From Chrysemys picta bellii (lineage: Eukaryota), in NCBI RefSeq assembly GCF_011386835.1, contig NC_088792.1, positions 30,194,001-30,258,000 of the forward strand: a stretch of DNA of 64,000 nucleotides, written 5' to 3'. Made by a program: the position numbers and the translations under genes. Positions within the stretch are counted from its first letter, which is position 1. Each line of letters opens with the position of its first letter. The notes below the pieces were generated by a model. That model saw nothing but the letters and a program-made list of their open reading frames with translations. It was not told the DNA's origin and made no database searches. Positions 1-40,165 of this stretch are shown here, one piece after another.

Positions 1-576
1 ACCCTGATGATTTCAAGGCCTTCCAAGACCTTATGAAATGTGTGGTAGATACATTACAGATTCCAGTGTTCCCTGTTGAACATGCATCATACATCTTCTC
101 AGGGCAAGATTGCACTACCTATCCCCAGCCTCCATGGAGTGGCAAATCCCAGCCACTGTACCACTTGCATGCAAGCGGGTTGACAAGAAGTACTATATCC
201 AGCCCATAGGCTTGGAGTATTTTTTCCTTCACCCTATAAGTAACATGCTGGTAGTTGAGGCAGTTAACTAATGGAACAGACAACATTGGTTCTGTTCAAC
301 CCCATCAAATAAAGCTAAAATGTCTGGTTTGTAAGAGCTACTGCTTGGCCTCTCTACAGCTCAGAAAAGCCAATTACAAATCCTGATAGCAAAGTACGAC
401 TTCACGTATTATTCCAAATTTGTATCTTTTATTGTATACCTGCCTCAGGATCACAGAGAACAATTTCAGGCCCTCATTACGTAAGGTTAGACAGTTGCCA
501 AAGCATCTCTCTTGATGCATTCAAGCCTCTCTTGATGCATTCAACACAGCCAAATGCCTCATGGCTATGGCAGTAG

Positions 577-1146
577 TTCTTCAAGTGCTTGCTCATGTCA
601 ATTTCCATTGTCGGTGTGCGCGCGCCCAGATGCGCGGCTGTCAGAAACTTTTGGCTTAGTGGTACCCATGGGCCACTGTGGCACCCTCTGAAATACCGTG
701 CTTGTGGCGCAATATATCGGGCGTCACTGGCCCTATGCCCTCTTGGTTCCAAGACTGTGAACTCTGAGCTCACCTCCTGGGATTCAGCTTGTGAATCACC
801 TACAATGGAATCGACATGAGCAAGCACTCGAAGAAAAAACAGTTACTCACCTTTTTGTAACTGTTGTTCTTCGAGATGCGTTGCTCATGTCCATTCCATT
901 ATCTGCCCTCCAGTCCCTCTGTCGGAGTTGTGGGCAGAAGGAACCGAGAGGGCACAGGGCCAGCTGTGCCGGATATACCGCGCCATTAGCACAGCACTCC
1001 AGAGGGTGCCACAGCCAGCCCTACAGGTACCGCTAAGGCAAAAGTCTCTGGCCACGCACATGGGTGTGTGCACACCTACAAGGGAATGGACACGAGCAAC
1101 ACATCTCGAAGAACAACGGTTACAAAAAGATGAGTAACCATTTTTT
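577..1146 (+). mobile_element. Non-autonomous mini-DIRS (lTR-ICR-rTR, no coding sequence) inserted in the host DIRS gag
   Basis: lTR 577-750 is inverted relative to rTR 940-1114. ICR 797-835 is complementary to the left end 577-616. ICR 834-897 is complementary to the right end 1083-1146 (58/64 identical, all 6 differences are transitions). Confidence 0.9.
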
Positions 1147-1781
1147 ATGTGCTGTATGCACCAACCTTCCTGGCTGCAGTACTCTGGCCTTCCCTGGGAG
1201 GTACACAATACTGTTAAGGACCTGCTCTTTGAGGGGACTGAATTATTTAGCAACACCACAGATGAGTCCCTTTGCTCTCTCAAGAACTCATGGGTGATGC
1301 TATGATCTCTGGCCAATTACACACTTGTGACAAAGAAATAATACAGCAGGTCACAGATGGCTCCATAACCTTGTTCAGTCTACCCCAGCCCATGAGGCCA
1401 ACTGAACCCCCCAAGAAGAACAAGGGTATTCTCCCAATCAGCAACATCTTCAAAATGTCCACTTTGACCCACTGGTCTAGAGTCACAAACCATCTCCCAC
1501 TCTAGATCCTGCACTTCACCACCATTATGGGGATTGTCTTTCCCATTTTCTGTTTTCCTTGGAGCTTATCACCTTTGACATGTGGATCTTGGAATAATTT
1601 CTACAGGTTATTCCATCCAGTTCAGCTCTCTACTCCCCCACCCCCAACCCACTCCCTGTCCCTTTTCAGGGACCCTTCTCACGAGGACTTTCTCAGGTAG
1701 CAAGTACAATCCCTGCTAACACTAGAGAATGGGTGGCAGGTTGGCGATCTGTTCCACTAGACTTTAGCTAGGAAAGTGTTC

Positions 1782-2950
1782 TATTCTCAATACTTCCTGG
1801 TTCCAAAGAGAAATGGAAGAAGGAGACCAATTCTGGACCTCAGAACTTTGAACTGTGCATCCATGCTCAACAGCTCAGAATGGTAACCCTAGCAATGTTA
1901 ATTTCCTCTCTGGATCCGGAAGATTAGTTTGTTTACCTCGACCTTCAGAATGCCTATTTCCATAGTGTCATGCATCCCTCACACTGACCATTTCTACGTT
2001 TTGTGGTAGGCAGGGACCGCTATCAGTATCTCATCCTACCCTTTGGCCTTTCCATCATCTCAAGCGTCTTTACCAATGTCCTATCAGTCGCTGCATCCCA
2101 CCTTCTCTAGATGTGAATAATTCTTTCCCTACCTGGGTTATTAGATCCTAAAAGGTCACTTGCTTCTAAAGATATAGACAGCAACCACAAAACCCAATCT
2201 CTGGTCCACTTGGTAGGGCTTTACCTCAACACACACAAAAATCTATGCTCTCACCCCTTCAGTGCATAGACTTCATTGGGGCCACTTCATCTCCATCACC
2301 GCTAGACCCTACTTGCCGAAAGACAGATTTGCCACAATGTCCAACCTTGTTTCAAAGATAAAACAAAGACTGCAAACCACAGCACAGGCTTGCCTACAAC
2401 TTCTGGGCCATGTGGTATTCTGCACATTTAGCAAGACTAATCTCTCAGTGTCTTCAAGCCTGGCTGAGAATTGTCCATTCACTCAAGTACATTCTCTGCA
2501 AATGGGTGTCCATACCTTGGAGGGGCCTCGTCTTCCAATTTGGTGGAAAGACACACTAAATGTGGGAGTTCAATTCCTGCAGCCCCTCTCTCCTCACCAT
2601 AGACACTTATCTCCTAGGTTGGGGCACACACTCCCAAAACCTCATAGCTCAGAGAAGATGGACTCCTTTGGAGGCTATCCTCAATATCAGCATATTAGAG
2701 CTCAGAGCAGTTCATCATACTTGCTAGCACTTCCTCTTCCACATCAGGGGCCACCCGACCAGAATAATGCTGAACAACAGAGCAGCAGTGTATTATACCA
2801 ACTGTCAAGACAGAGAAAGATCCCACTCATTATGTGCAGAAGCCATAAAACTGGTAAATATACAATGCATACAGATTTCAATATCTACCAGGACTACAGA
2901 ACAGAGTGGCGGATTCTCTCAGCAGACCTTTCAGCATCAAGCATGAGTAG
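1782..2950 (+). pseudogene. DIRS reverse transcriptase / RNase H remnant (stops and frameshifts)
   Basis: YSQYFLVPKRNGRRRPILDLRTLN (1782-1853), LDLQNAYFH (about 1937-1963), LPFGL (about 2036-2050), a decayed PYL(DD) region (about 2127-2140) and RNase H-like TIDTYLLGWGTH (about 2596-2631). Confidence 0.85.
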
Positions 2951-3120
2951 GAGCTGTGAGCAACGAGGTTTTCCGAAAGATGTGTCTTACCTGGAGCAAT
3001 CCACAAATAGATTTCTTCACAACTCCATCCAATAAGAAGTGTAAACGACTCTGCTTGAGGGGAGAGAATGGCTGCAACTCAATGGGGGATGCCCTAGTTA
3101 TTCCTTAGCCTTGTGTACTG

Positions 3121-3260
3121 CTTTATGCTTGTCCCCCCACGCCCCTACTGCTTATGTTCCTGAACAATTTGAAACAAGAAAGATTACTAGTCATCATCAT
3201 AGCACAGTATTGACTCAGACAGGTGTACAAAGCTGGTTCACATGTCTCTGCTACTGCCTC
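3121..3260 (+). pseudogene. DIRS Dam-like methyltransferase domain remnant
   Basis: LYACPPTPLLLMFLNNLKQEK resembles the DIRS1 MT motif LYAFPPxPLIxxVLxKIxQD, in the expected position after RNase H. Confidence 0.6.
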
Positions 3261-3429
3261 TCCATCTTTCCCTGTCAGTGAATCTTCTCAGCCAAGAGTC
3301 AAGATCCCTCACTCACCAGAATCTTCCAGCACTTCACCTCAAGGCCTGGCTACTAGATAGCTCTCTGGTATAGAACAAGACTGCTCCCCGGGTGTGCTTC
3401 ATAGCAGACTTTCAACAAGGAAAACTTAA

Positions 3430-4286
3430 TTGCAGAATCTATGCCAATCTATGCCTCCTCTTGAGTCTTGCCTTACACACGTTCTTGGTTACCTGTTCAA
3501 TTTAAAAACCTCAAGATTATTGTTGAGTTCCATTAAAGTTCACCTAGCCGCTGTCACAGCCTTTCACACGCAGCCCCTATTGAGGGGTTTTCAGTTTTCA
3601 CCCATCCAACCACAACAAGGTTTATAAACCTGTTCAACCTCTTTCCACCTTGGGGCCTCAACTTAGTACTCGGAGCACAGAGGAAACCTCCATGATCATG
3701 GAACCTATGACGAACTGTTCCCTCCTTCATTTGTCCCTTGACACGACATGCTTCATAGCCATCACCTCGGCTAGGGGGAGAGGAGAGTTTGGAGCCTTGA
3801 TGGCTCCACCCAGTATATAGAGTGTTTCACTGTGGCAAGGTGATGCTTCATTTTCACTATTTCTTCTTTCCCATGGTTTCTTCAGAATTTCACATCAACC
3901 AAGAGATTCGCCTGCTGGTGTTCAATCCCATGCCTCACTCTTCCATAGAAGAAATGGGCTTTCATACACTGGACATAAGAAGAGCTCCCAGCTTTTTACG
4001 TAGATGTGACCTGGCCCATCAGGATTTCACCCAGACTTTTCATCTCAATTGCAGAATGTATGAAAAGAGAGTTGATTTCCACCCAAACACTATCCAAATC
4101 GGTTACCGCTGCATCTTAAACTGTTACAAAGCCTCAGGGGTTGGTCCTCCTCCGAGACTCGTTGCTCATTCCACCAGGGATCAATCTACCTCATTAGCCC
4201 TTCCGAAAAACATACCTTTTCCAGACATCTCAGAGCAGCCACCTGGTCCTCACTACCCACATTTTTCCAGCACTACACTCTTGTGA
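3430..4286 (+). pseudogene. DIRS tyrosine recombinase remnant
   Basis: ORF-track fragments VLGYLFNLKTSRLLLSSIKVHLAAVTAFH and HTLDIRRA...RLVAHSTR; the H-x-x-R catalytic motif is at 4167-4178. Confidence 0.85.
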
Positions 4287-4341
4287 CTGTTCTCGGAGCT
4301 GACACAGCTGTCAGTGAAGCTGTTCCATGATCTGTACTGAA

Positions 4342-4362
4342 TCCTCCTCCTCCTCCTCCTCC
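4342..4362. repeat. (TCC)7 microsatellite inside the DIRS 3' region
   Basis: tcctcctcctcctcctcctcc, read directly. Confidence 0.9.
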
Positions 4363-7300
4363 TCAGCAACCTTCTCCATGATGGGGAGACTGCTCAGGAG
4401 TCTCCTTAGGTGGAGCACCCATAGGGATGCTACTCGAAGGAGGAGAGATTATTTATCTTGTACAGTAACTGGAGTTCTTTGAGATGCATGTACCTATGTG
4501 TGTCCCACTACCCACCCTCTTTCCGCTCTGCCTTGGAGTCTCTCTCTTTGGACTTTTTTGGTAAAGAAGGAACTGGAGTGGCAGCAGGTTCACCCCTCCC
4601 TATGTACGCTCCTGTTGGGGCATGAGGGTGACTGGGGCACAGGTGTGAACCCACAGACACAGCCAAAAAAACATCTCCAATTAAGAGCACATGGTCATGC
4701 ACATTTATCCTGATGTGGAGCAGCCACAGGAGGACACATCTCGAAAAACTCATTCCTGTACAAGGTAGGTAACCTCTTCTTCTTGATGTCTGTATTGTTT
4801 GGTTAAAGACACCCGTAGCTTGCCTTCTTGCAGAGGAGTAGCTCCCTCCACCCTTAGGACTAAATTAACTCTTTTTACCCATATATCAGACATGAGAGAA
4901 ATATAGACTGAGGTATCTGTAATAGTTATATGATGCAGAGTTATTTTTCATGTTCTTCACAGCTAGATACTTGTTTTTAATAAAAGCTGAAATTCTGATG
5001 TAATCTTATGATTCAGAATATGAATGGCCCTCTAAGCATGGGCCTATAGTGCCTGTGTCTTAATCCAGCCTTGGGTCCATTATCTATCTCATCTTGAAAG
5101 ATCATTGATCGAATGGAACATTTTATCATTCTGGCTATTGCTCTTTGATATTACGTTTAGTTGCTAAATATCTCTAGGTTACTATATTTTTAACCATTAG
5201 AAAATTTTAATATTTTATTCCTTCCCCATTCATAAACCCCAAACTGTCTAGACAATCTTTACAAACAATTCACTTGCCAAATTCAATTTTAAAACAGAAG
5301 TTGTAAAGTTATATAATTGCACAAACAATTATAACTCTGTAACCCTTTGAACACTACTGTTTGGGAAGATGATGCATTCTGAGCGTTTGGGATGGGGGCA
5401 GGCATTGGGAGGAGGAAGAATGTTCTGAACTAGGAAGAGAAGTATATGAAGTAAGTGTTTGTGGTGGGAGTGATGAGAAACTCACTTGGAAAGGGAGAAA
5501 GGGCTGTAAAAGAGTGTTGGATACTTATTATGAGATGTTAGGGCAAAGTCTTTGGCAGATAAAGTAATGGGAATAAGTGCTTGATTGAGGTTGGGGACCA
5601 TGCTGGCTGGGTCTTGTCTTCTTCTGCGTTCTAAAGATATTATTCAATTTTACTGTAATTATTTTTGTACTTGTGTGGATTAGGAGTGATGTGTGCTTGC
5701 TCTCACTCTATATATAAGTATAATATAATTTTATCTTTTTTTGTTTTTGGAAGCATTGACATTTTCGTCCTTTAGTTTGTAAAGGAGATTAAATTTACAT
5801 AATTCTTCTGTTGTTTATATACTTGTCTGTGCAAATGTCACCACCAATGGCATCAGTACTGCTCTGGGAATAGTGTCTGTCAACTGCAGCTGTAGAGCCA
5901 GAAGGGGGAGCTCCCAACATTGTTTTTTGTGTGTCTTGACTAAATAGAGGATAGTGCATGTTTTTAATATCAGAGCCAAAGAAAATGGAGGGTAGATATT
6001 TGGGTAGGGAGAGTATCCTCTGCCAGCTCTTAAGATTTTCTGTATTGCTGCTGTAAGTGATGTGGTAACAAATCCTGTGCTATGCAGGAGGTTGAACTAG
6101 ACCCTTTACATCTTTGAATCTATGAAATCCCAGTCTTACTTTGTAAGTTTATTGGGTACTTGCCCAACTTTCCAAAATGAAGACATTGTTAGTACTCAAT
6201 ATACTTACATAAAAACAAGGATTCAGAGAAAGGGAATGTTCTTTTCAGAAATTCTATGTACCGTAGTGCACCAGAGCTACCTGACAGTAACTGAAAATTG
6301 ATGTTATAAATGGCTGCTTATGATGTTATGTTGAGCTTCATCCCAGAGTAAATTTTAATGACATATTATAAACATGTGAAAAACTAAATTTAGACTGGAA
6401 ATGCTGACGGAGCTCTTAACTACAACAGATTGAACAACCTCCTGCGACAACCATTGTCACTGCTTTATCTACTTGGATAGAAAACTACAAGTAATGGAAG
6501 AATAACTATAGAGATACAGGAAGAGTGTTATGCCATATATTTTAAGAGAGTCATTCTGGAGCAGATTTTTAATTTCTTTTGTTAGAATACTCAGTATCCC
6601 TATGGAAATATTTTATATGAATTCAGATTTTTTTTAAATATTGAACATAAACAAGACTGTATTTTTAGTGTCTCTCTTTGTTTCCCGGATTTTGAATTCA
6701 ACACTTCATATGCATATCAGTAATTAAAATAGCCCATTGATATTTTGTCCCAGAAGATTTGGTCATTCCATAAAGGCAGTTCCTGTATTGTATATTTCCT
6801 GAGGGTATGAGAGCCTATACCTCCTACATATAATAAACTTCTCTTCATCTTTCTCTAATGCCATTAAAGCTACAAGCCTTTTGTTGTAAAAGTATACTAA
6901 TGAATAGAAATGTTACAACAAGAACAGAGTCTTGTGTTTTCCCTTCATCATGCATCATCCATTTTAATTAGACAAAGGGGTGGTGAGCACTGTGACAAGA
7001 GTCTGGAATTAAAATCATTAATTGATGTCAAGCTGAAGAGAGACTGCTAACATGAATTTAGTGACAGCAGGAAAGAAATTAACCTTATTACTTTATTTAG
7101 TATATTAGATTATTTAATATGTTTTCCTATGCATGGCCAATGCACTTTATTTATGATTATGGAAAAGGACAAATGATAAAAACTATGTGAATGTTCATTA
7201 TTATCTAGCAATGAAACTTGCGCAATAAACCCTTTGAAAACTAAAAACAAAAACAAAAAAAAATCAAAAGGCATGCACCAAAACTTCATAGTTTCTCTTT

Positions 7301-15813: not shown

Positions 15814-16100
15814 GGGCTTGTCTACATGACCCCCCAGTTCGGACTGCAGGAAAGTGAACTGCAGAATGCACTAGCATGCTACGCTGTAACTCCCCCATGT
15901 GGACGCTACAAATGCAAACTAGAAGGTACCTAGTTTGGGTTAATGTATTCCTGTTTAAACAGAGCTACATTAACATGAACCTAGATATCTTTTAGTTCAC
16001 ACCCACAGCATCCACACAGGGGAGTTACAGCGCAGCACATTAGCACCCACTGCAATTCACACCCCTGTAGTCCGAACTGCGGGGCCATATAGACATAGCC
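15814..16100. mobile_element. Foldback MITE, PIF/Harbinger-like (287 bp, palindromic along its whole length)
   Basis: TIRs gggcttgtctacatgacccc / ggggccatatagacatagcc. Inner arms pair (cagttcggactgcagg / cctgtagtccgaactg; gctgtaactcccc / ggggagttacagc). Centre ctgtttaaacag. Flanked by TGA on both sides (3-bp TSD). Confidence 0.8.
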
Positions 16101-16240: not shown

Positions 16241-16564
<324 letters not shown>

Positions 16565-17012
16565 TAGGCTCCAGACATCAGTCAATACTATGTTTCAAAA
16601 TTCAGCTTCATAATGTTTTTGCCATAGGAGTACTGTTCATCAATTTTAAAGCCAGAGCTGCATTTTATTAATGGCTTTTAAAAAGCCTTTATGTAGAAAA
16701 ATATTGAATTAACACAAATCAAGTCATAATGGAACGAGAAGCACAAGCTTTTGTAATGATTCTAACATTTCATCTCATTCTTTAAATGGTTTTGGACCCA
16801 AGATTCACTCTTTAGTATAATTCAAATTACAGTCAAACTTGTAACAGCCTCTGGTTTAATTATCCGAGGTCTTGCTAATGTGATTGGGGGACAATGACAG
16901 TTCTGAATTCTGTTTGGAGCAATTATTTGAGCTGTGCAAAACTCTTATAATGAAACCAAAAGCCTGGCAAAGCTTACCTGGATTCTGATTTTATTGCAAA
17001 TCTGAACCTCCG

Positions 17013-23342: not shown

Positions 23343-23418
23343 TGACATTTTAAACTGTTAACTACCTGGGTTGAATAAGGCTATAAGTAGCTCCGACCCC
23401 ACCCAACCTTTGTTTATT
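23343..23418 (+). repeat. 76-bp direct repeat, left copy (target-site duplication of the CR1)
   Basis: TGACATTTTAAACTGTTAACTACCTGGGTTGAATAAGGCTATAAGTAGCTCCGACCCCACCCAACCTTTGTTTATT, identical to 28035-28110. Confidence 0.97.
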
Positions 23419-23792: not shown

Positions 23793-26748
23793 TTAAACCA
23801 TTCCCTCCATAAACTTATCTAACTTTATCTTAAAACCAGACAGGTCCGTCGCCCCCACCGTTTCCCTCGGTAGGCCGTTCCAATATTTCACCCCTCTGAC
23901 GGTCAGAAACCTTCGTCTAATTTCAAGTCTGAACTTCCCCACGGCCAGTTTGTATCCATTCGTTCTGGTATCCACGTTAGTACTAAGCTGGAATAATTCT
24001 TCTCCCTCCCTTGTATTAATCCCTCTAATATATTTAAAGATAGCAATCATATCCCCTCTCAGCCTTCGCTTTGTCAGACTAAACAACCCAAGCTCCTCTA
24101 GTCTCCTTTCGTACGACAGCTTTTCCATTCCTCTGATCATCCTAGTGGCCCTTCTCTGCACCCGTTCCAGTTTGAGTTCATCTTTTTTAAACATGGGAGA
24201 CCAGAACTGCACACAGTACTCCAAATGAGGTCTCACCAGCGCCTTGTACAACGGAAGCAGGACCTCCTTATCCCTACTAGATATACCTCGCCTAATGCAT
24301 CCCAAGACAGCATTTGCTTTTTTCACCGCCACGTCACATTGTCGACTCATAGTCATCCTGCGGTCTACAAGAACCCCTAGGTCCTTCTCCTCTTCCGTTA
24401 CTTCTAACCAATGCGTCCCCATCTTGTAACTAAAATTGTTATTAGTCATCCCCAAATGCATCACCTTACACTTTTCACTATTAAATTTCATCTTATTTCT
24501 GATACTCCAATTCACAAGCTCATTCAAGTCTCCCTGCAGGATATCCCTGTCCTCCTCCGAATTTACAACGCCTCCCACCTTCGTATCATCTGCAAATTTT
24601 ATCAGCCCACTCCTGCAATCGGTTCCGAGGTCAGTTATAAATAGATTAAATAAAATGGGTCCCAAAACCGAACCTTGAGGCACTCCACTAGTAACCTCCC
24701 TCCAACCCGACAGTTCACCCTTTAATACAACCCGCTGCATTCTCCCCAGTAACCAATTCCTTATCCACTTCTGGATTTTCATATCGATCCCCATGTTTTT
24801 CAGTTTAACCAATAATTCCTCATGGGGTACAGTATCAAACGCTTTACTGAAATCCAGGTATATTAGGTCCACCGCATTTCCCTTATCTAATAAATCCGTT
24901 ACTTTCTCAAAGAAGGAGATCAGATTCGTTTGGCACGATCTGCCCTTCGTAAAACCATGTTGTAATTTATCGCAATTGCCACTACCCTCCAGGTCCTCAA
25001 CTAGTTTCTCTTTCAGAATTTTCTCTAACACCTTGCACACTACAGATGTTAGACTAACAGGCCTGTAGTTACCCGGATCACTTTTTTTCCCTTTCTTGAA
25101 AATAGGAATCACATTAGCTATTCTCCAGTCTAATGGGACCACCCCCGAGTTTACAGATTCATTAAATATTATCGCTAATGGGCCTGCTATTTCCCGCGCC
25201 AATTCCTTCGATATTCTCGGATGTAGATCGTCCGGTCCTCCCGACTTAGCCCCATTAAGGCGTTCAAGGTTTGTTTCCACCTCGGATACGGTAATCCCCC
25301 ATCCCGAATGCCCCTCTATAGTGGTGCTAGTATCCCTAATACCTTCATTGGCCTCATTAAACACCGATGCAAAATATTCATTAAGATATTGCGCCATGCC
25401 TAGATTGTCTTTAATCTCCTCTCCGGCAATAGACTTCAGCGGTCCCACTTCTTCTTTCTTTGTTTTCTTCCTATTTATGTGGCTGTAAAACCTCTTACTA
25501 TTGCTTTTAATTCCCCTCGCTAGGTCCAACTCTACACGGCCTTTGGCCTTTCTCACTCTATCTCTACATTCTCTGACTTCACTTAGGTACATTTCCTTAC
25601 TGATCCCTCCCCTCTTCCACTCTTTATCCGCTTTCTGTTTTTTCCTAATCGCCCCTTTGAGTCGGTCGCTCATCCAGCTCGGTCTAAATCTCTTGCTTAG
25701 TAATCTTTTTCCCTTTTTTGGAATACAGGCCTCCGACAGCTCATGCATCTTTAACTTAAAGTAATCCCAGGCTTCTTCTGCTTTTAAATCCATTAATACG
25801 TTTGCCCAGTCCACTTCCCTTACCAGTCCCCTTAGTTTGTTAAAATTGGCCTTTTTAAAATTATAAACCCTAGTCTTTGATTTAATTCTGTTACTCCTTC
25901 CATGTATTTTAAACCGAATTAGCTCATGATCACTGGAGCCCAAATTGTCCCCTACTACCACTTCCTCAACAAGGTCCTCACTACTTGCCAGAATCAAATC
26001 TAAAATGGCCTCCCCCCTCGTCGGTTCAGTTACCACTTGATGGAGGAATTGATCAGCAAGCACTTCTAGGAACATCTGAGCCCTGTTATTGCTACTAGCG
26101 TTTGTTCCCCAATCTATATACGTGAAGTTAAAGTCCCCCATAATTACACAGTTTCTGTTAGTAATTACTTTTCTAAACACATTAAATAGTTCCTTATCCA
26201 TATCCTGGGTCGATCCCGGCGGTCTATAGCACACTCCAAGCACTATCCCCGGAGAGGCTCTAGTAGTCCTATTACCCAGTGTGAGTATTGCCCAGACAGA
26301 CTCTGTGTTATCTAATCCATCCACTATTATTTCTTTACAGTTTATTTCACTATTGACATACAAGGCCACCCCCCCCACCTTTACCTTTGTTCTGGTCTTT
26401 CCTAAACAGCGCATACCCCTCCATACCTGTGTTCCAGTCTTGACTGCCATTCCACCACGTTTCCGTTATTCCTACGATATCCGGTTTCAGTTCCTGGACC
26501 AAGAGCTCCAATTCCTCCATTTTATTACCTAGGCTTCTGGCATTGGTGTATAAACACCCTAATGTATGTTGTTTAGCCCGTCTCCCATTAGCAGCACTAT
26601 ATGTTGCGGGCCTCCTTGTGTCCGTCCCCCCTGTCCTTCCTATGTCCAATCTCATCTCCCCGGCTATGTCTCCTCTCCTTTTACTCACCTTTTCCATACT
26701 GGAATCTGGCGTGGAGATTAACTGTGCATCTCCCAACCGTCTCCCCAA
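23793..26748 (-). CDS. CR1 ORF2 (APE endonuclease + reverse transcriptase), broken only by a +1 frameshift in a G8 run at 26369-26376
   Basis: EN motifs LYTNARS, GITETW, MGDFN and SSDH; RT motifs [24 protein letters not shown] and FADDTKV. The 132-aa and 885-aa ORFs join if G8 is read as G7 (KGGGVALYV). First in-frame ATG is at 26697. Confidence 0.93.
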
Positions 26749-26753
26749 ACTTC

Positions 26754-27890
26754 CTAGTTTAAAGCTCTTTTGATTAGATGAGCCAGCCTCCCTCCCAGAA
26801 GTCTATTTCCTTCCCTACTCAGGTGAAGCCCATCCCGCGAGAACAGGTGTCTGTCCCCGAAAGCCTCCCAGTGGCCATACATCCCAAAGCCCTCCTTATA
26901 GCACCACTCCCTTAGCCAACTATTTATTCTCACAATCCTATCAGCCCTTTGCTGCCCTTCCCTTGGAACGGGCAGAATCCCACTAAAGATAATCTGAGCC
27001 TCTATCTCCTTGAGCGTCTTCCCCAGCCTGGCATAATCTCCCTTGATCCTCTCTAACGAGAACCTAGCCGTGTCATTCGTTCCCACATGAAGGATTATCA
27101 AGGGGTTCTTACCTGCTCCTTTTAGGATCCTTTTCAACCGCAGGTCCACATCGCGTATCTTTGCGCCCGGGAGACAGCACACCCTTCTGTTCTCCGGGTC
27201 CGCCCTGGTCACAGGCCTGTCCAATCTCCTCAGTAAAGAGTCACCAATCACATACACCTGCCGTTGCCTGGCAACAGTGCGATCTAGTAATCTAGTCTCC
27301 GATCCCTCTAGTCCTGACCTGTGCCTGTTCCTATCTTCCCTTATGCTCCCCCTTATGCCTTCCTGAATCCTCCCGGGGCCCAGAATTGGTGCTGTCTCCA
27401 TCAACTCCTCCCCTCTCTCTCCTGGACTAGCTGCTCTTCTCTTCTTCCTCACCCTCCCACCTTCAGTCGCCACCTGCTGCCCCTCCACCTCGCTATCCAA
27501 ACACTCGAACCTATTCCTGAGTTCTATTCCCCCCTCACTGGCCCTTCTTTTCCTTGGCCTACTTCTCACAGTCACATGCTTCCACCTCCCATGTTCTCCC
27601 CCCTCCATTCCCCTCTCACCGTCCTCTACCTCTGCCTCTACCTCCGCCACAGGGCATTCTCCTTCAGCCCCCCCTTGCCTTTCCTCCATCAGCTGCTCAA
27701 ACCCCCGCCTAAACTCCACCAGGGTATCTACCTGCATCTGCAGCCCCTTAATCTTTTCCTCCAGTAACACTATCAGGCGACACTTCATACACACATACCT
27801 TTGTTCCAGGTCTCCTGCTAGGACTATATACATACCACAGCTCCCACATGTCGCCATCTGCATTCTGTCTGCTGCTGCTGCTTGGCTCAT
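26754..27890 (-). CDS. CR1 ORF1p, 378 aa (zinc finger, coiled coil, SGNH/GDSL esterase-like domain)
   Basis: ATG at 27890 in GCAGCC-ATG context. C-x2-C-x15-C-x2-C (CGSC...CMKC); heptad segment LLEEKIKGLQMQVDTL; esterase blocks VIGDSLLR, VGTND and DGLHL; ends RALN*. Confidence 0.93.
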   Translation of the reverse strand: MSQAAAADRMQMATCGSCGMYIVLAGDLEQRYVCMKCRLIVLLEEKIKGLQMQVDTLVEFRRGFEQLMEERQGGAEGECPVAEVEAEVEDGERGMEGGEHGRWKHVTVRSRPRKRRASEGGIELRNRFECLDSEVEGQQVATEGGRVRKKRRAASPGERGEELMETAPILGPGRIQEGIRGSIREDRNRHRSGLEGSETRLLDRTVARQRQVYVIGDSLLRRLDRPVTRADPENRRVCCLPGAKIRDVDLRLKRILKGAGKNPLIILHVGTNDTARFSLERIKGDYARLGKTLKEIEAQIIFSGILPVPREGQQRADRIVRINSWLREWCYKEGFGMYGHWEAFGDRHLFSRDGLHLSREGNRLLGGRLAHLIKRALN

Positions 27891-28034
27891 GGCTGCTGCG
27901 GTCCCTGCCCACAGCACCTGGGGGCATGGAGTACAGAACACACCGCGCCCTCCTGCCTCCCCGCTTACCTCCCCCTGCAAACTCCCTCTCAAACTCCCCT
28001 GTTAGCCGCCCTGTTTGCTGCCGCTGCTCGCAGC

Positions 28035-28110
28035 TGACATTTTAAACTGTTAACTACCTGGGTTGAATAAGGCTATAAGTAGCTCCGACCCCACCCAACC
28101 TTTGTTTATT
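28035..28110 (+). repeat. 76-bp direct repeat, right copy (target-site duplication of the CR1)
   Basis: Identical to 23343-23418. Flanking bases differ (a/c before, a/g after), which fixes the boundaries. Confidence 0.97.
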
Positions 28111-36716: not shown

Positions 36717-38873
36717 TTTAATTGGGGTGGTAATAAACTCAGATCCTCTGCAGATCAGGCACGGAGGGGATGCTCACCAGTGGGTCACACAGCCGCCCTT
36801 ACAACAGTTATTGGATGTGGTGGTTTGTTTTCTGTTACGAAGTTTTTCTTTCCTGTTAATAACATGTCCAGCATAATACTTCATTGCCATTTTCAGTATT
36901 GGAGGGGCTTGTTTTAAAATGATTTTAAAATATAGTAGGTTCATAAGGCAGAGGTGTGTTGAAATTTGCATACCATTCCAGAATTCATCACCCACTTCTA
37001 CACCCCAATTTAAAAATGTGCTAGCAGCAACAAGAACAAGAATGAAGAGGAGCAAAGAAAAGATGAAAATCACAGAATTTTGAGCATGGTGGGAGTAGAG
37101 GTGAGGGGATCATTTTAGATGGTGACGAGATATGGGGCAGGAATTAGGAAAGGTGATCTCAGAGGATAAGTTGTTACGAGAAGAGACAGAGATGGTGGGG
37201 AGAAAATGAGACTTGGAAGAAGAGTGGTGGCGAATGAAGAGAGAGGAGCTGTGTGTCCAAGGGAAAAGGCAGCTGGGAGTCTGGAGCCTGAGAAGGATGA
37301 AGAGTGGAGCTGGAGAGTGCAGGGGAAAGGAAACAGCCCCTAATCTGTGTCATTAAGCTACATGACTATACAAATACACACATTATTCACTAGAATAAAA
37401 CAATAAAATGTTGCTGTTAAAATATTTTTTTCTTTTATGAGCCTTTTCTCCAGTATTCACCTAAGATTAACCTGGTCCATGAAACCCAAACGATGTTCAT
37501 TCCCTCCCTGCAACATCAGCAACGCTACAGGAACAGAAATAAGGCCTGGCTGCAGGATCCCATTATCTAAATTCAGCCTTTCTCCATGTCTCTGTCAGAT
37601 CAGAACAACTTGAATGGGCATGAAACAGCAGGAGAGGCAATGTATGTGCTCAGGTTCTTGCAGCTCCGTCACATTACCATCTCATTGTGTCTGCAAGGGT
37701 GCTGCAGACTTGATTAAAAAAATTAATGATGAGAAACAAAAATGAGAGAGAGGAGAACAAAGGAAAAAAAGTAAAGGGAGCATGGAGGAAGTTTACTGCA
37801 TAAAAGTCATTCAGTTATCCCTCAGAGCCTAGATCCCTTGTCTAATTGTCTAAGTTGGTCCTTCAGGACTGAACTGCTTAAGTGAAATGGCAGTGCTGTG
37901 GTAAGGTAACGACGGGAGGCAGGTTGTGAACAGGATTGCACATATATGCATGAACAGTGAAGCAGAGATTCCATCTGTTCGTATTTGTCTTGTACCCCTG
38001 TTAGTAGCAGAGATGCAAAGACTGCCAAATAAAAAGACTAAATGCTAGCCAGTAGTCCCTTCTGGTCAAGGTTGAGGCATTGGTGGTACAGTTTGAGGAA
38101 ACGTGACCTGATCCTTTGTATGCTGTGCTCTTTCTGTGACTAGTTTCCATCTCCAGGGCTGTAAATCTGTCAGTTTACACTGTATTAAATTTGTTTAGAA
38201 ATCTGAAGGAAAAGAAAAACAGCATAAAAATATCTCATTGCAAAGTCATTGGATACTGAAGAACATCAGAACTGAGCTGAAGTAGAAATGAAAGCGCTTT
38301 AACCAGAATCAGTGTACCATTGCAGCTGTTTATGCCAACAAAATACCATGATTGGAGGGACATCATGATGCGTAACTTTCAACCTTAAAGCACTAAGCAA
38401 GAATAAATTTATCTTTGGTACCTCTCCCGCCACATCCCTTGAGAAGAGAGAGCCCTCTTCCATCACTTCCCCTGACCAAAAAAACCCCTCCTCCCAGCCT
38501 TCTAGTCCTGTTCTATCATCCCATTTTAAACAAGTCCCAGGACACCCAAGGCATCCAACCACCCGTAGACTGAGAACCATATACTTTCCACTCACCTAAA
38601 TGCAACCATCCCAGGTTATCAGTTCATTAGCTCTGTTGACTCCCTACCAAGTTCTTCTTTGTCCCTGCCTTATTTCCCCACTGAAACCAGCTCAGCCCTC
38701 TCTTTCCCAGCTGTATGAAGGTGTCAGAAACAGGTAGGGTGAGGAGGCAGATGGCATTAGGAGCATAGTCAGGGAGAGGAGGCGGGTTCCCATTAAGGAG
38801 CATGGCAGAGAACGTCTATTTCATTCTAGGCAAGAGTCCTAAGATGTACTCCCTTCCAGTGGCCAGAAGCCTA

Positions 38874-39145
38874 GGGTTTGCCTAGACAAATAGTTGGTGT
38901 GCAGCCCGCTGGGGTGTAAATCTACAGGGCACAAGCATGCTGCACACTACCTGTCCATGTGCACCCTGCTACAGAGTACTAAAAGGTCTCTAGTGTGCAC
39001 TGACCTACTCCTGTTTAGCAAGGTAAATCAAAGTGCAATAGGGAACTTTTAGTGCACGGTAACAGGGCCACATGGACAGGTAGTGTGTGCCCTGTAGATT
39101 TACACCCCAGCTTCCTGCACACCTCCTATTTGTCTAGGCAAGCCC
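38874..39145. mobile_element. Foldback MITE, PIF/Harbinger-like
   Basis: TIRs gggtttgcctagacaaatag / ctatttgtctaggcaagccc. Inner arms ctggggtgtaaatctacagggcac / gtgccctgtagatttacaccccag. Flanks cta / tta. Confidence 0.8.
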
Positions 39146-40165
39146 TTAGTTTTCTTCCCTAGCACATTGCCCCATGGAGACTTTCAGTTTCTTAGGAAAT
39201 TAGCAAGTCCTTGGGTAGTTATATATTTTTACTTGTATAACACCCTAAGAGTATGGTATGGCAGTTTTTATAGATTAATAAGATACAGTCCCTGCCTTAA
39301 AGGTCATAGAGTCAAAGTTTAGACATAAGACAATGTAAAGAGGATGGAAGAGAAAGGGGGAGGACAAAGGTTACAACAGTAAGATCCTCATGTGGTTGCT
39401 TTTGATGACTCCAGGTAACATACACCTGGAAATTAGCTAGTTTCGTAAGGGATCATGTACCGCCTACAACAATGCAAGTATTATCTGGAGTGTAAAAAAA
39501 AAAGTTTCAGAGACACAGAATCAGAAGAAAAAGTGCTTTCTTTAGTAATCATAATTCTTACTCATGCTACATCATTATACTTACATTTCATTTAAGATTT
39601 TAAAGAACAACTCCTATTCATTTAAGATTTCCATCAAAAACTTCTTCCAAACCTGCTTAGTGCTGTATGAATAGTGAAATGATTCATGCAGCCAGACCTT
39701 TCTAACTGAATAATTGATACATTTTGACAAGCTGAACATACAATTGGGTATATTTGCCTCACTATATGCGTGTGATGATTAACGTAAGTAGGAACTTACG
39801 TGTGCTCATCAAGGGGAGAAAATGCCCCAGTGTGGCTATTGCCTGATGGTTCAGTGAGCTGAACTTTGGTACTAGATTTAGTCTGTTGATAATGTTTAAC
39901 AGAGTATAGTGATGGTTTATAGATCTGCATGTGAAAGTATAAAATTCAGTGCACTGCAGAGAGATCGGGAGCTAATTACAATGGTAAGAATGTAAATGGA
40001 CACTATCAATTTGTTTAGGCCCCAAAATTTACCCTGCTAAATTCTAAACCATATTCCTGGAGGATAGATTAATAAACTCTTATTTCTGCCCTCCCCTCCC
40101 CCGCAGCTCATTGGCAGCATGATGCCATTGGAGCCATGCTGCCATGGCTGCCTCCAGGCCCCTGA

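Follow-up and report, generated by a model that had tools for sequence, protein, structure and literature searches.

At positions 577-1146 of the 64,000-nt window (the whole stretch of painted-turtle DNA that we analysed), the forward strand carries a 570-bp element made up of a DIRS1-type left repeat, an ICR, a right repeat and a right extension, without coding DNA. Self-alignment places the left terminal repeat at 577-750 and the right inverted repeat at 940-1114, and their alignment over 573-750 has 139 identities against 35 mismatches and 8 gap columns; the arm segments 676-750 and 940-1014 are 80% complementary. Two spacers, of 46 nt (spacer 1, 751-796) and 39 nt (spacer 2, 901-939), flank an ICR that spans 797-900 in total, its end lying at 900 as against 897 in an earlier note on this DNA. 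The left part of the ICR (797-835) is complementary to 577-616 in 36 of 40 columns, and its right part (834-900) to 1080-1146 in 60 of 67. The right extension (1115-1146) ends in a run of T and finds its pairing partner in the ICR alone, and the six A at 834-839 are the circle-junction template, corresponding to six T in the joined ends. These alignments bear out the repeat-ICR-repeat DIRS1 cis-architecture that the earlier note had described. A motif at 936-944 also occurs near the inner edge of the right repeat (4565) of the DIRS element that surrounds this one, and its complement in the left repeat breaks off at 750, which suggests that the left repeat has probably lost about 4 nt from its inner end; the start of the right repeat may lie at 936 instead of 940.

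The element thus has inverted terminal repeats, an ICR complementary to both outer ends and an extension matched by the ICR alone, while gag, RT-RNase H-methylase and recombinase ORFs are absent from 577-1146, which makes it a derivative and not an autonomous member of the DIRS1-like group. The accessible text of PMC3266345 describes DIRS1-like elements, such as lizard AcDIRS1 and AcDIRS2, with inverted repeats, a two-part ICR, a right extension, NTT-type ends and no target duplication, as here. The sizes are close to those of AcDIRS1 (a repeat of 26 divergent plus 140 conserved nt, an extension of 26 and an ICR of 40-58, against about 175, 32 and 39-67 here), and the cis frame is DIRS1-like (PMC3266345, PMC8969392, accessible text of each). 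Unlike those elements of about 6 kb (PMC3266345), the 570-bp element lacks gag, RT, RNase H, methylase and recombinase, and the conserved part of its arms departs from strict complementarity.

The earlier note's statement that no coding remnant is present also holds: the longest stop-free frames in the element (91-143 aa) have no known meaning, and tblastn with 97 gag homologs gave only five matches inside it, all at E 0.21 or worse. Gag was the protein compared, and spacer 1 may still contain the last few codons of a YR. Protein word searches with pieces of the surrounding element returned no match, and a Pfam scan of eight translations from the window gave two sub-threshold matches only.

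The element strand has a predicted fold of -331.7 kcal/mol (z -22.6; 0 of 100 shuffles equally good) in which 75% of its bases are paired, and the minus strand, taken as RNA, has a stronger predicted fold (-364.6, 82% paired). The expectation that its RNA would fold on itself is therefore sound as regards the strength of the fold; transcription is not expected to yield the full-length hairpin, since most of each repeat is missing from the known transcript of DIRS-1 (PMC7192593, accessible text). No RNA run containing the element was present among the 24 runs listed, a result that is silent on expression.

Insertion into an older DIRS element and surroundings

The element is placed at a TT and has no target duplication; the gag that it interrupts belongs to another turtle DIRS (the host), which is older. 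Left of the insertion, 1-576 (plus strand) is decayed host gag with 97 homologs at E 0.001 or better; to the right, 1147-4784 (plus strand) holds the rest of gag and a decayed region of RT and presumed RNase H and recombinase, with the host ICR near 4400-4508 and the right end at about 4784, the left end lying beyond the window. The host's RVT_1 match (E 0.0065) is below the Pfam cut-off, and the stretches that we take to be RNase H and recombinase, from their motifs, have no Pfam match to either domain. Turtle names were found in eight of the nine host gag homolog clusters looked up. Two of ten scanned host gag homologs contain Pfam LAP2alpha, a domain that the accessible text of PMC9210276 reports in Xenopus DIRS ORF1. 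Within the host gag lies a perfect tandem duplication (507-544; 18-nt copies at a spacing of 20), and 10 of its letters, at 512, are missing from a contig of organism D, one of the organisms with public data.

In the 33 of 97 homologs that align to the right flank, the sequences on either side of the element are adjacent gag codons, and no host codons have been lost. Two T at the left end of the element and six at its right end equal the junction T6 plus the target TT, which argues for recombination at a shared TT without target duplication. Insertion at a short junction word is itself a DIRS1-like trait, the shared word being 2 nt here and 3 nt in the accessible text of PMC3266345. Three codons at 1147-1164 (plus strand) are extra relative to the gag homologs and resemble an old 9-nt tandem duplication with 5 of 9 letters alike; both copies lie to the right of the element, so they are not a target duplication. 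With no duplication on both sides and with DIRS-type ends, the element does not fall among class II MITEs.

The CpG observed/expected ratio is 0.59-0.92 in the repeats and ICR of the element and 0.14-0.20 in the host, so the insert is much younger than its host. Its right part aligns with the host's right end only distantly (261 identities, 123 mismatches, 72 gap columns), and the two therefore represent different families, as the earlier note had proposed.

The rest of the window holds other mobile sequences, and self-comparison found no second copy of the element within its 64,000 nt. A near-intact LINE occupies 23793-28001 on the minus strand, with an endonuclease-RT frame that is open over 890 aa and, upstream of it, a frame of 415 aa, and is presumably CR1-like, judging by its motifs; a 76-nt exact repeat lies at 23343-23418 and 28035-28110, and a second, decayed LINE copy near 49031-50452. 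Two self-complementary stretches of about 280 bp (15815-16100 and 38873-39146; 74-75%) are probably miniature DNA transposons. An open frame at 16241-16567, without a Pfam match, resembles a PARD3 exon, so the window may be intronic.

A single internal joint

Part of the element is contained in 20 of the 24 public runs listed, which come from 10 studies and five organisms. Contigs of four runs were aligned to 277-1476 at 80% likeness, and 31 of 13,575 pieces could be viewed; such contigs show presence, never absence, and may be placed on the opposite arm. One contig from run X14 (record 1, 472-833) spans both the left junction and 750/751 with zero differences, so that the joint between left repeat and spacer 1 is not an assembly error. 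X14 comprises 14 million letters and yielded mainly this locus and ICR pieces; its source organism may be the window's own, in which case the contig is no independent confirmation. The right junction is spanned by record 30 of run X2 and by record 15 of run X16, the latter from organism D at 98.7%, so the insertion is common to organism D, whose left-repeat contig ends at 742, before the joint.

Foreign contigs align over 750-949, and the 12 long foreign pieces that were scored are 81-86% alike to the element; relatives at this likeness carry the same ICR and right end, and two of their pieces (804-970 and 873-1048) show spacer 2 to be collinear with their ICR-to-right-repeat stretch. At the left edge of spacer 1 the relatives depart from the element: in the three larger runs, all five foreign pieces among those listed that reach this edge stop at 750-758 (three, from three runs, at exactly 750, the others at 752 and 758), with 17, 22, 40, 63 and 399 unaligned letters to the left of their stops by record coordinates. 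No foreign piece crosses 750/751 among the 31 of 13,575 listed. Because the relatives stop here and continue in other sequence, spacer 1 is the tail by which longer relatives lead into their ICR. The single break of the element thus falls between 750 and 751, at the base of the stem that the repeats form; the breakpoint rests on these contig ends and on the one bridging contig.

These observations bear on the proposal that the element is a MITE-like parasite, which would need several copies with the same joint; among the pieces listed, the foreign contigs have a likeness of 81-86% and end at the joint, and the proposal finds no support. A related reading, that the element belongs to an old, low-copy family of non-autonomous miniatures mobilised in trans, is in our view unlikely. 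It would account for the retention of every cis part, and the accessible text of PMC7192593 shows trans-activity for DIRS-1; DIRS-order non-autonomous families are known; and extra private changes in the left repeat could mask siblings. Position 719 carries a variant letter in 8 X2 contigs and 12 X16 contigs whose right ends are unseen, and some of these could cross the joint. Against this reading stand the five pieces that stop at the joint while none listed crosses it and, as a weak hint, the depth at 677, 693 and 711, which equals that of one contig in X2 (45.1) and in X16 (31.5). We dropped low left-repeat depth as proof of a single copy, since contigs may sit on the other arm and gaps prove nothing.

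Contig depth in the three larger runs is very high over 797-900 and 1077-1146, so these terminal motifs are common to many DIRS copies in these genomes; in X2, the depth over the ICR (a measure of depth, not of copy number) is about 9,400 times that of the locus's own contig. Joins leading from the right end back to 577 were considered as circles and dropped, since ICR-bearing contigs produce the identical join. The string proposed earlier for circle-junction PCR is likewise the reverse complement of the genomic ICR, and cannot separate circles from chromosomal copies. Metagenome contigs gave 0 pattern matches and then 6 with a looser pattern, none similar to window positions 1-5000 by blastn or tblastx, so we ascribe them to chance; viral contigs gave 0 pattern matches.

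Divergence of the two arms

At non-CpG sites the arms are more divergent (19 of 143 differ) than the pairs formed by the ICR and the ends (3 of 106; Fisher p 0.006), while CpG-type changes are alike between the two comparisons (p 0.81). This excess, together with relatives that are dense on the right repeat and sparse on the left, could indicate a chimera of two DIRS copies, one supplying the left repeat and the other the right part, or an artefact of assembly. We consider this very improbable: the X14 contig spans the left junction and the joint without a difference, contigs from X2 and X16 span the right junction, and the ICR matches both ends at about 90%. Moreover, nine of the excess mismatches belong to one class, and without them the arm excess has p 0.16. 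Specifically, 9 of the 11 non-CpG transitions between 604-750 and 940-1084 are an A in the left repeat facing a C in the right, a class with p 0.0005 post hoc, or 0.017 without the three in poorly aligned stretches. These pairs are G-T wobbles on the minus strand and have no common sequence context. Contigs carry G at 646, 693 and 712, so the left repeat is probably the arm that changed, and a single contig of organism D with G at 693 places at least one change late.

Comparison with catalogued DIRS elements

Painted-turtle entries from DIRS-1 to DIRS-29_CPB, listed in the accessible supplement of PMC9341512 and compared here by name and length only, come from the same host group as the element and are the likely source of its parent family. 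Among those listed, 56 painted-turtle DIRS entries range from 974 to 6,259 bp, with one entry named non-autonomous (DIRS-24N1_CPB, 5,144 bp) and a 974-bp entry catalogued by name and length (DIRS-24B_CPB). The suggested catalogue comparison thus finds that non-autonomous DIRS-order families are indeed catalogued, and that, by name and length, none of the 56 is near 570 bp. In zebrafish, the same supplement contains DIRS-order families named or described as non-autonomous (DIRS-N1 to N6_DR, DIRS-4N1 to 4N5; the DIRS-N name also appears in the accessible text of PMC5400779), with 116-3,066 copies for non-autonomous entries. Of these, DIRS-N1 to N4 measure 5.8-6.6 kb, against 570 bp here, and are labelled Ngaro, and N6 (1,187 bp) and N5-LTR (382 bp) are both labelled LTR only (PMC9341512).

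Our literature search, which covered titles and abstract openings outside subscription papers and Repbase Reports, found no miniature ICR-type DIRS. MITEs and TRIMs are short, non-coding and reduced to end signals; their defining marks are uniform copies in large number and target duplications. The element is likewise short, non-coding and made of ends only, whereas uniform copies and a target duplication are not in evidence here. Chlamydomonas TOC1 has split direct repeats. It is described as a non-autonomous DIRS-order element in the accessible text of bioRxiv 10.1101/2022.06.16.496473, and the accessible portions of PMC8498967, PMC9004415 and PMC5753468 contain nothing on short DIRS.

Discussion

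We identify a real, clean, internally deleted copy of a DIRS1-like element, probably at one locus. That the element is confined to a single locus, whichever the timing of its shortening, we consider likely. Judging by the decay of the ICR, copies that arose in one burst would be expected to show a likeness near 90%, as against the 81-86% of the long foreign pieces that were scored. Our preferred account, held tentatively and with rather less than even confidence, is that it derives by deletion from a full-length turtle DIRS1-like retrotransposon, was shortened during its own copying, and was inserted in trans. After passing through the ICR as it copied, reverse transcriptase would have jumped to the base of the inverted-repeat stem, skipping about 5.5 kb; the short cDNA would have rebuilt its ends on the ICR, and a helper's tyrosine recombinase would have inserted it once, with later decay in place. 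Both ends and the whole ICR were kept despite the break. According to the accessible text of PMC7192593, Dictyostelium DIRS-1 cannot do without its ICR, has single-stranded cDNA and encodes proteins that act in trans. Our stem geometry is taken from that element, and transcript ends of vertebrate DIRS may differ.

The same anatomy would result if a full-length DIRS had inserted here and later lost its interior in one chromosomal deletion, so that the short form never moved, a possibility that we rate as real if somewhat doubtful. The single break and the failure of siblings to show among the listed pieces fit such a history, as do the high ICR depth in X2, which implies many DIRS copies available for deletion, and the painted-turtle DIRS entries, mostly of about 6 kb (PMC9341512, accessible supplement). 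Both breakpoints, however, fall at cis borders, and a uniform random deletion in 6 kb would strike both with a chance of about 6e-5, a rough figure that ignores that scans pick striking cases; this favours a structure-guided jump over random deletion. Both histories, shortening before insertion and deletion after it, fit all results obtained, and we lean toward an element that was short when it inserted.

The accessible text of PMC7192593 indicates that a single amoeba is the only organism in which the replication of DIRS elements has been tested and that the minimal cis-element and the primer are undefined. The earlier claim that this element defines the minimal cis-element would stand only if the short form itself moved. 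If the short form did insert, it would be natural proof that two repeats, an ICR and 85 nt of spacer are enough, and would offer a template for designing a minimal donor; a deletion that followed insertion would make it an ordinary fossil whose break is tidy. A broader proposal, which we think improbable though worth stating, is that DIRS1-type replication repeatedly yields minimal repeat-ICR-repeat forms that helpers insert in trans, some of them founding small families. Were this true, turtle genomes would hold an unlisted class of DIRS miniatures of about 0.6 kb, and the element would set an upper bound on the cis-sequence needed by a vertebrate DIRS.
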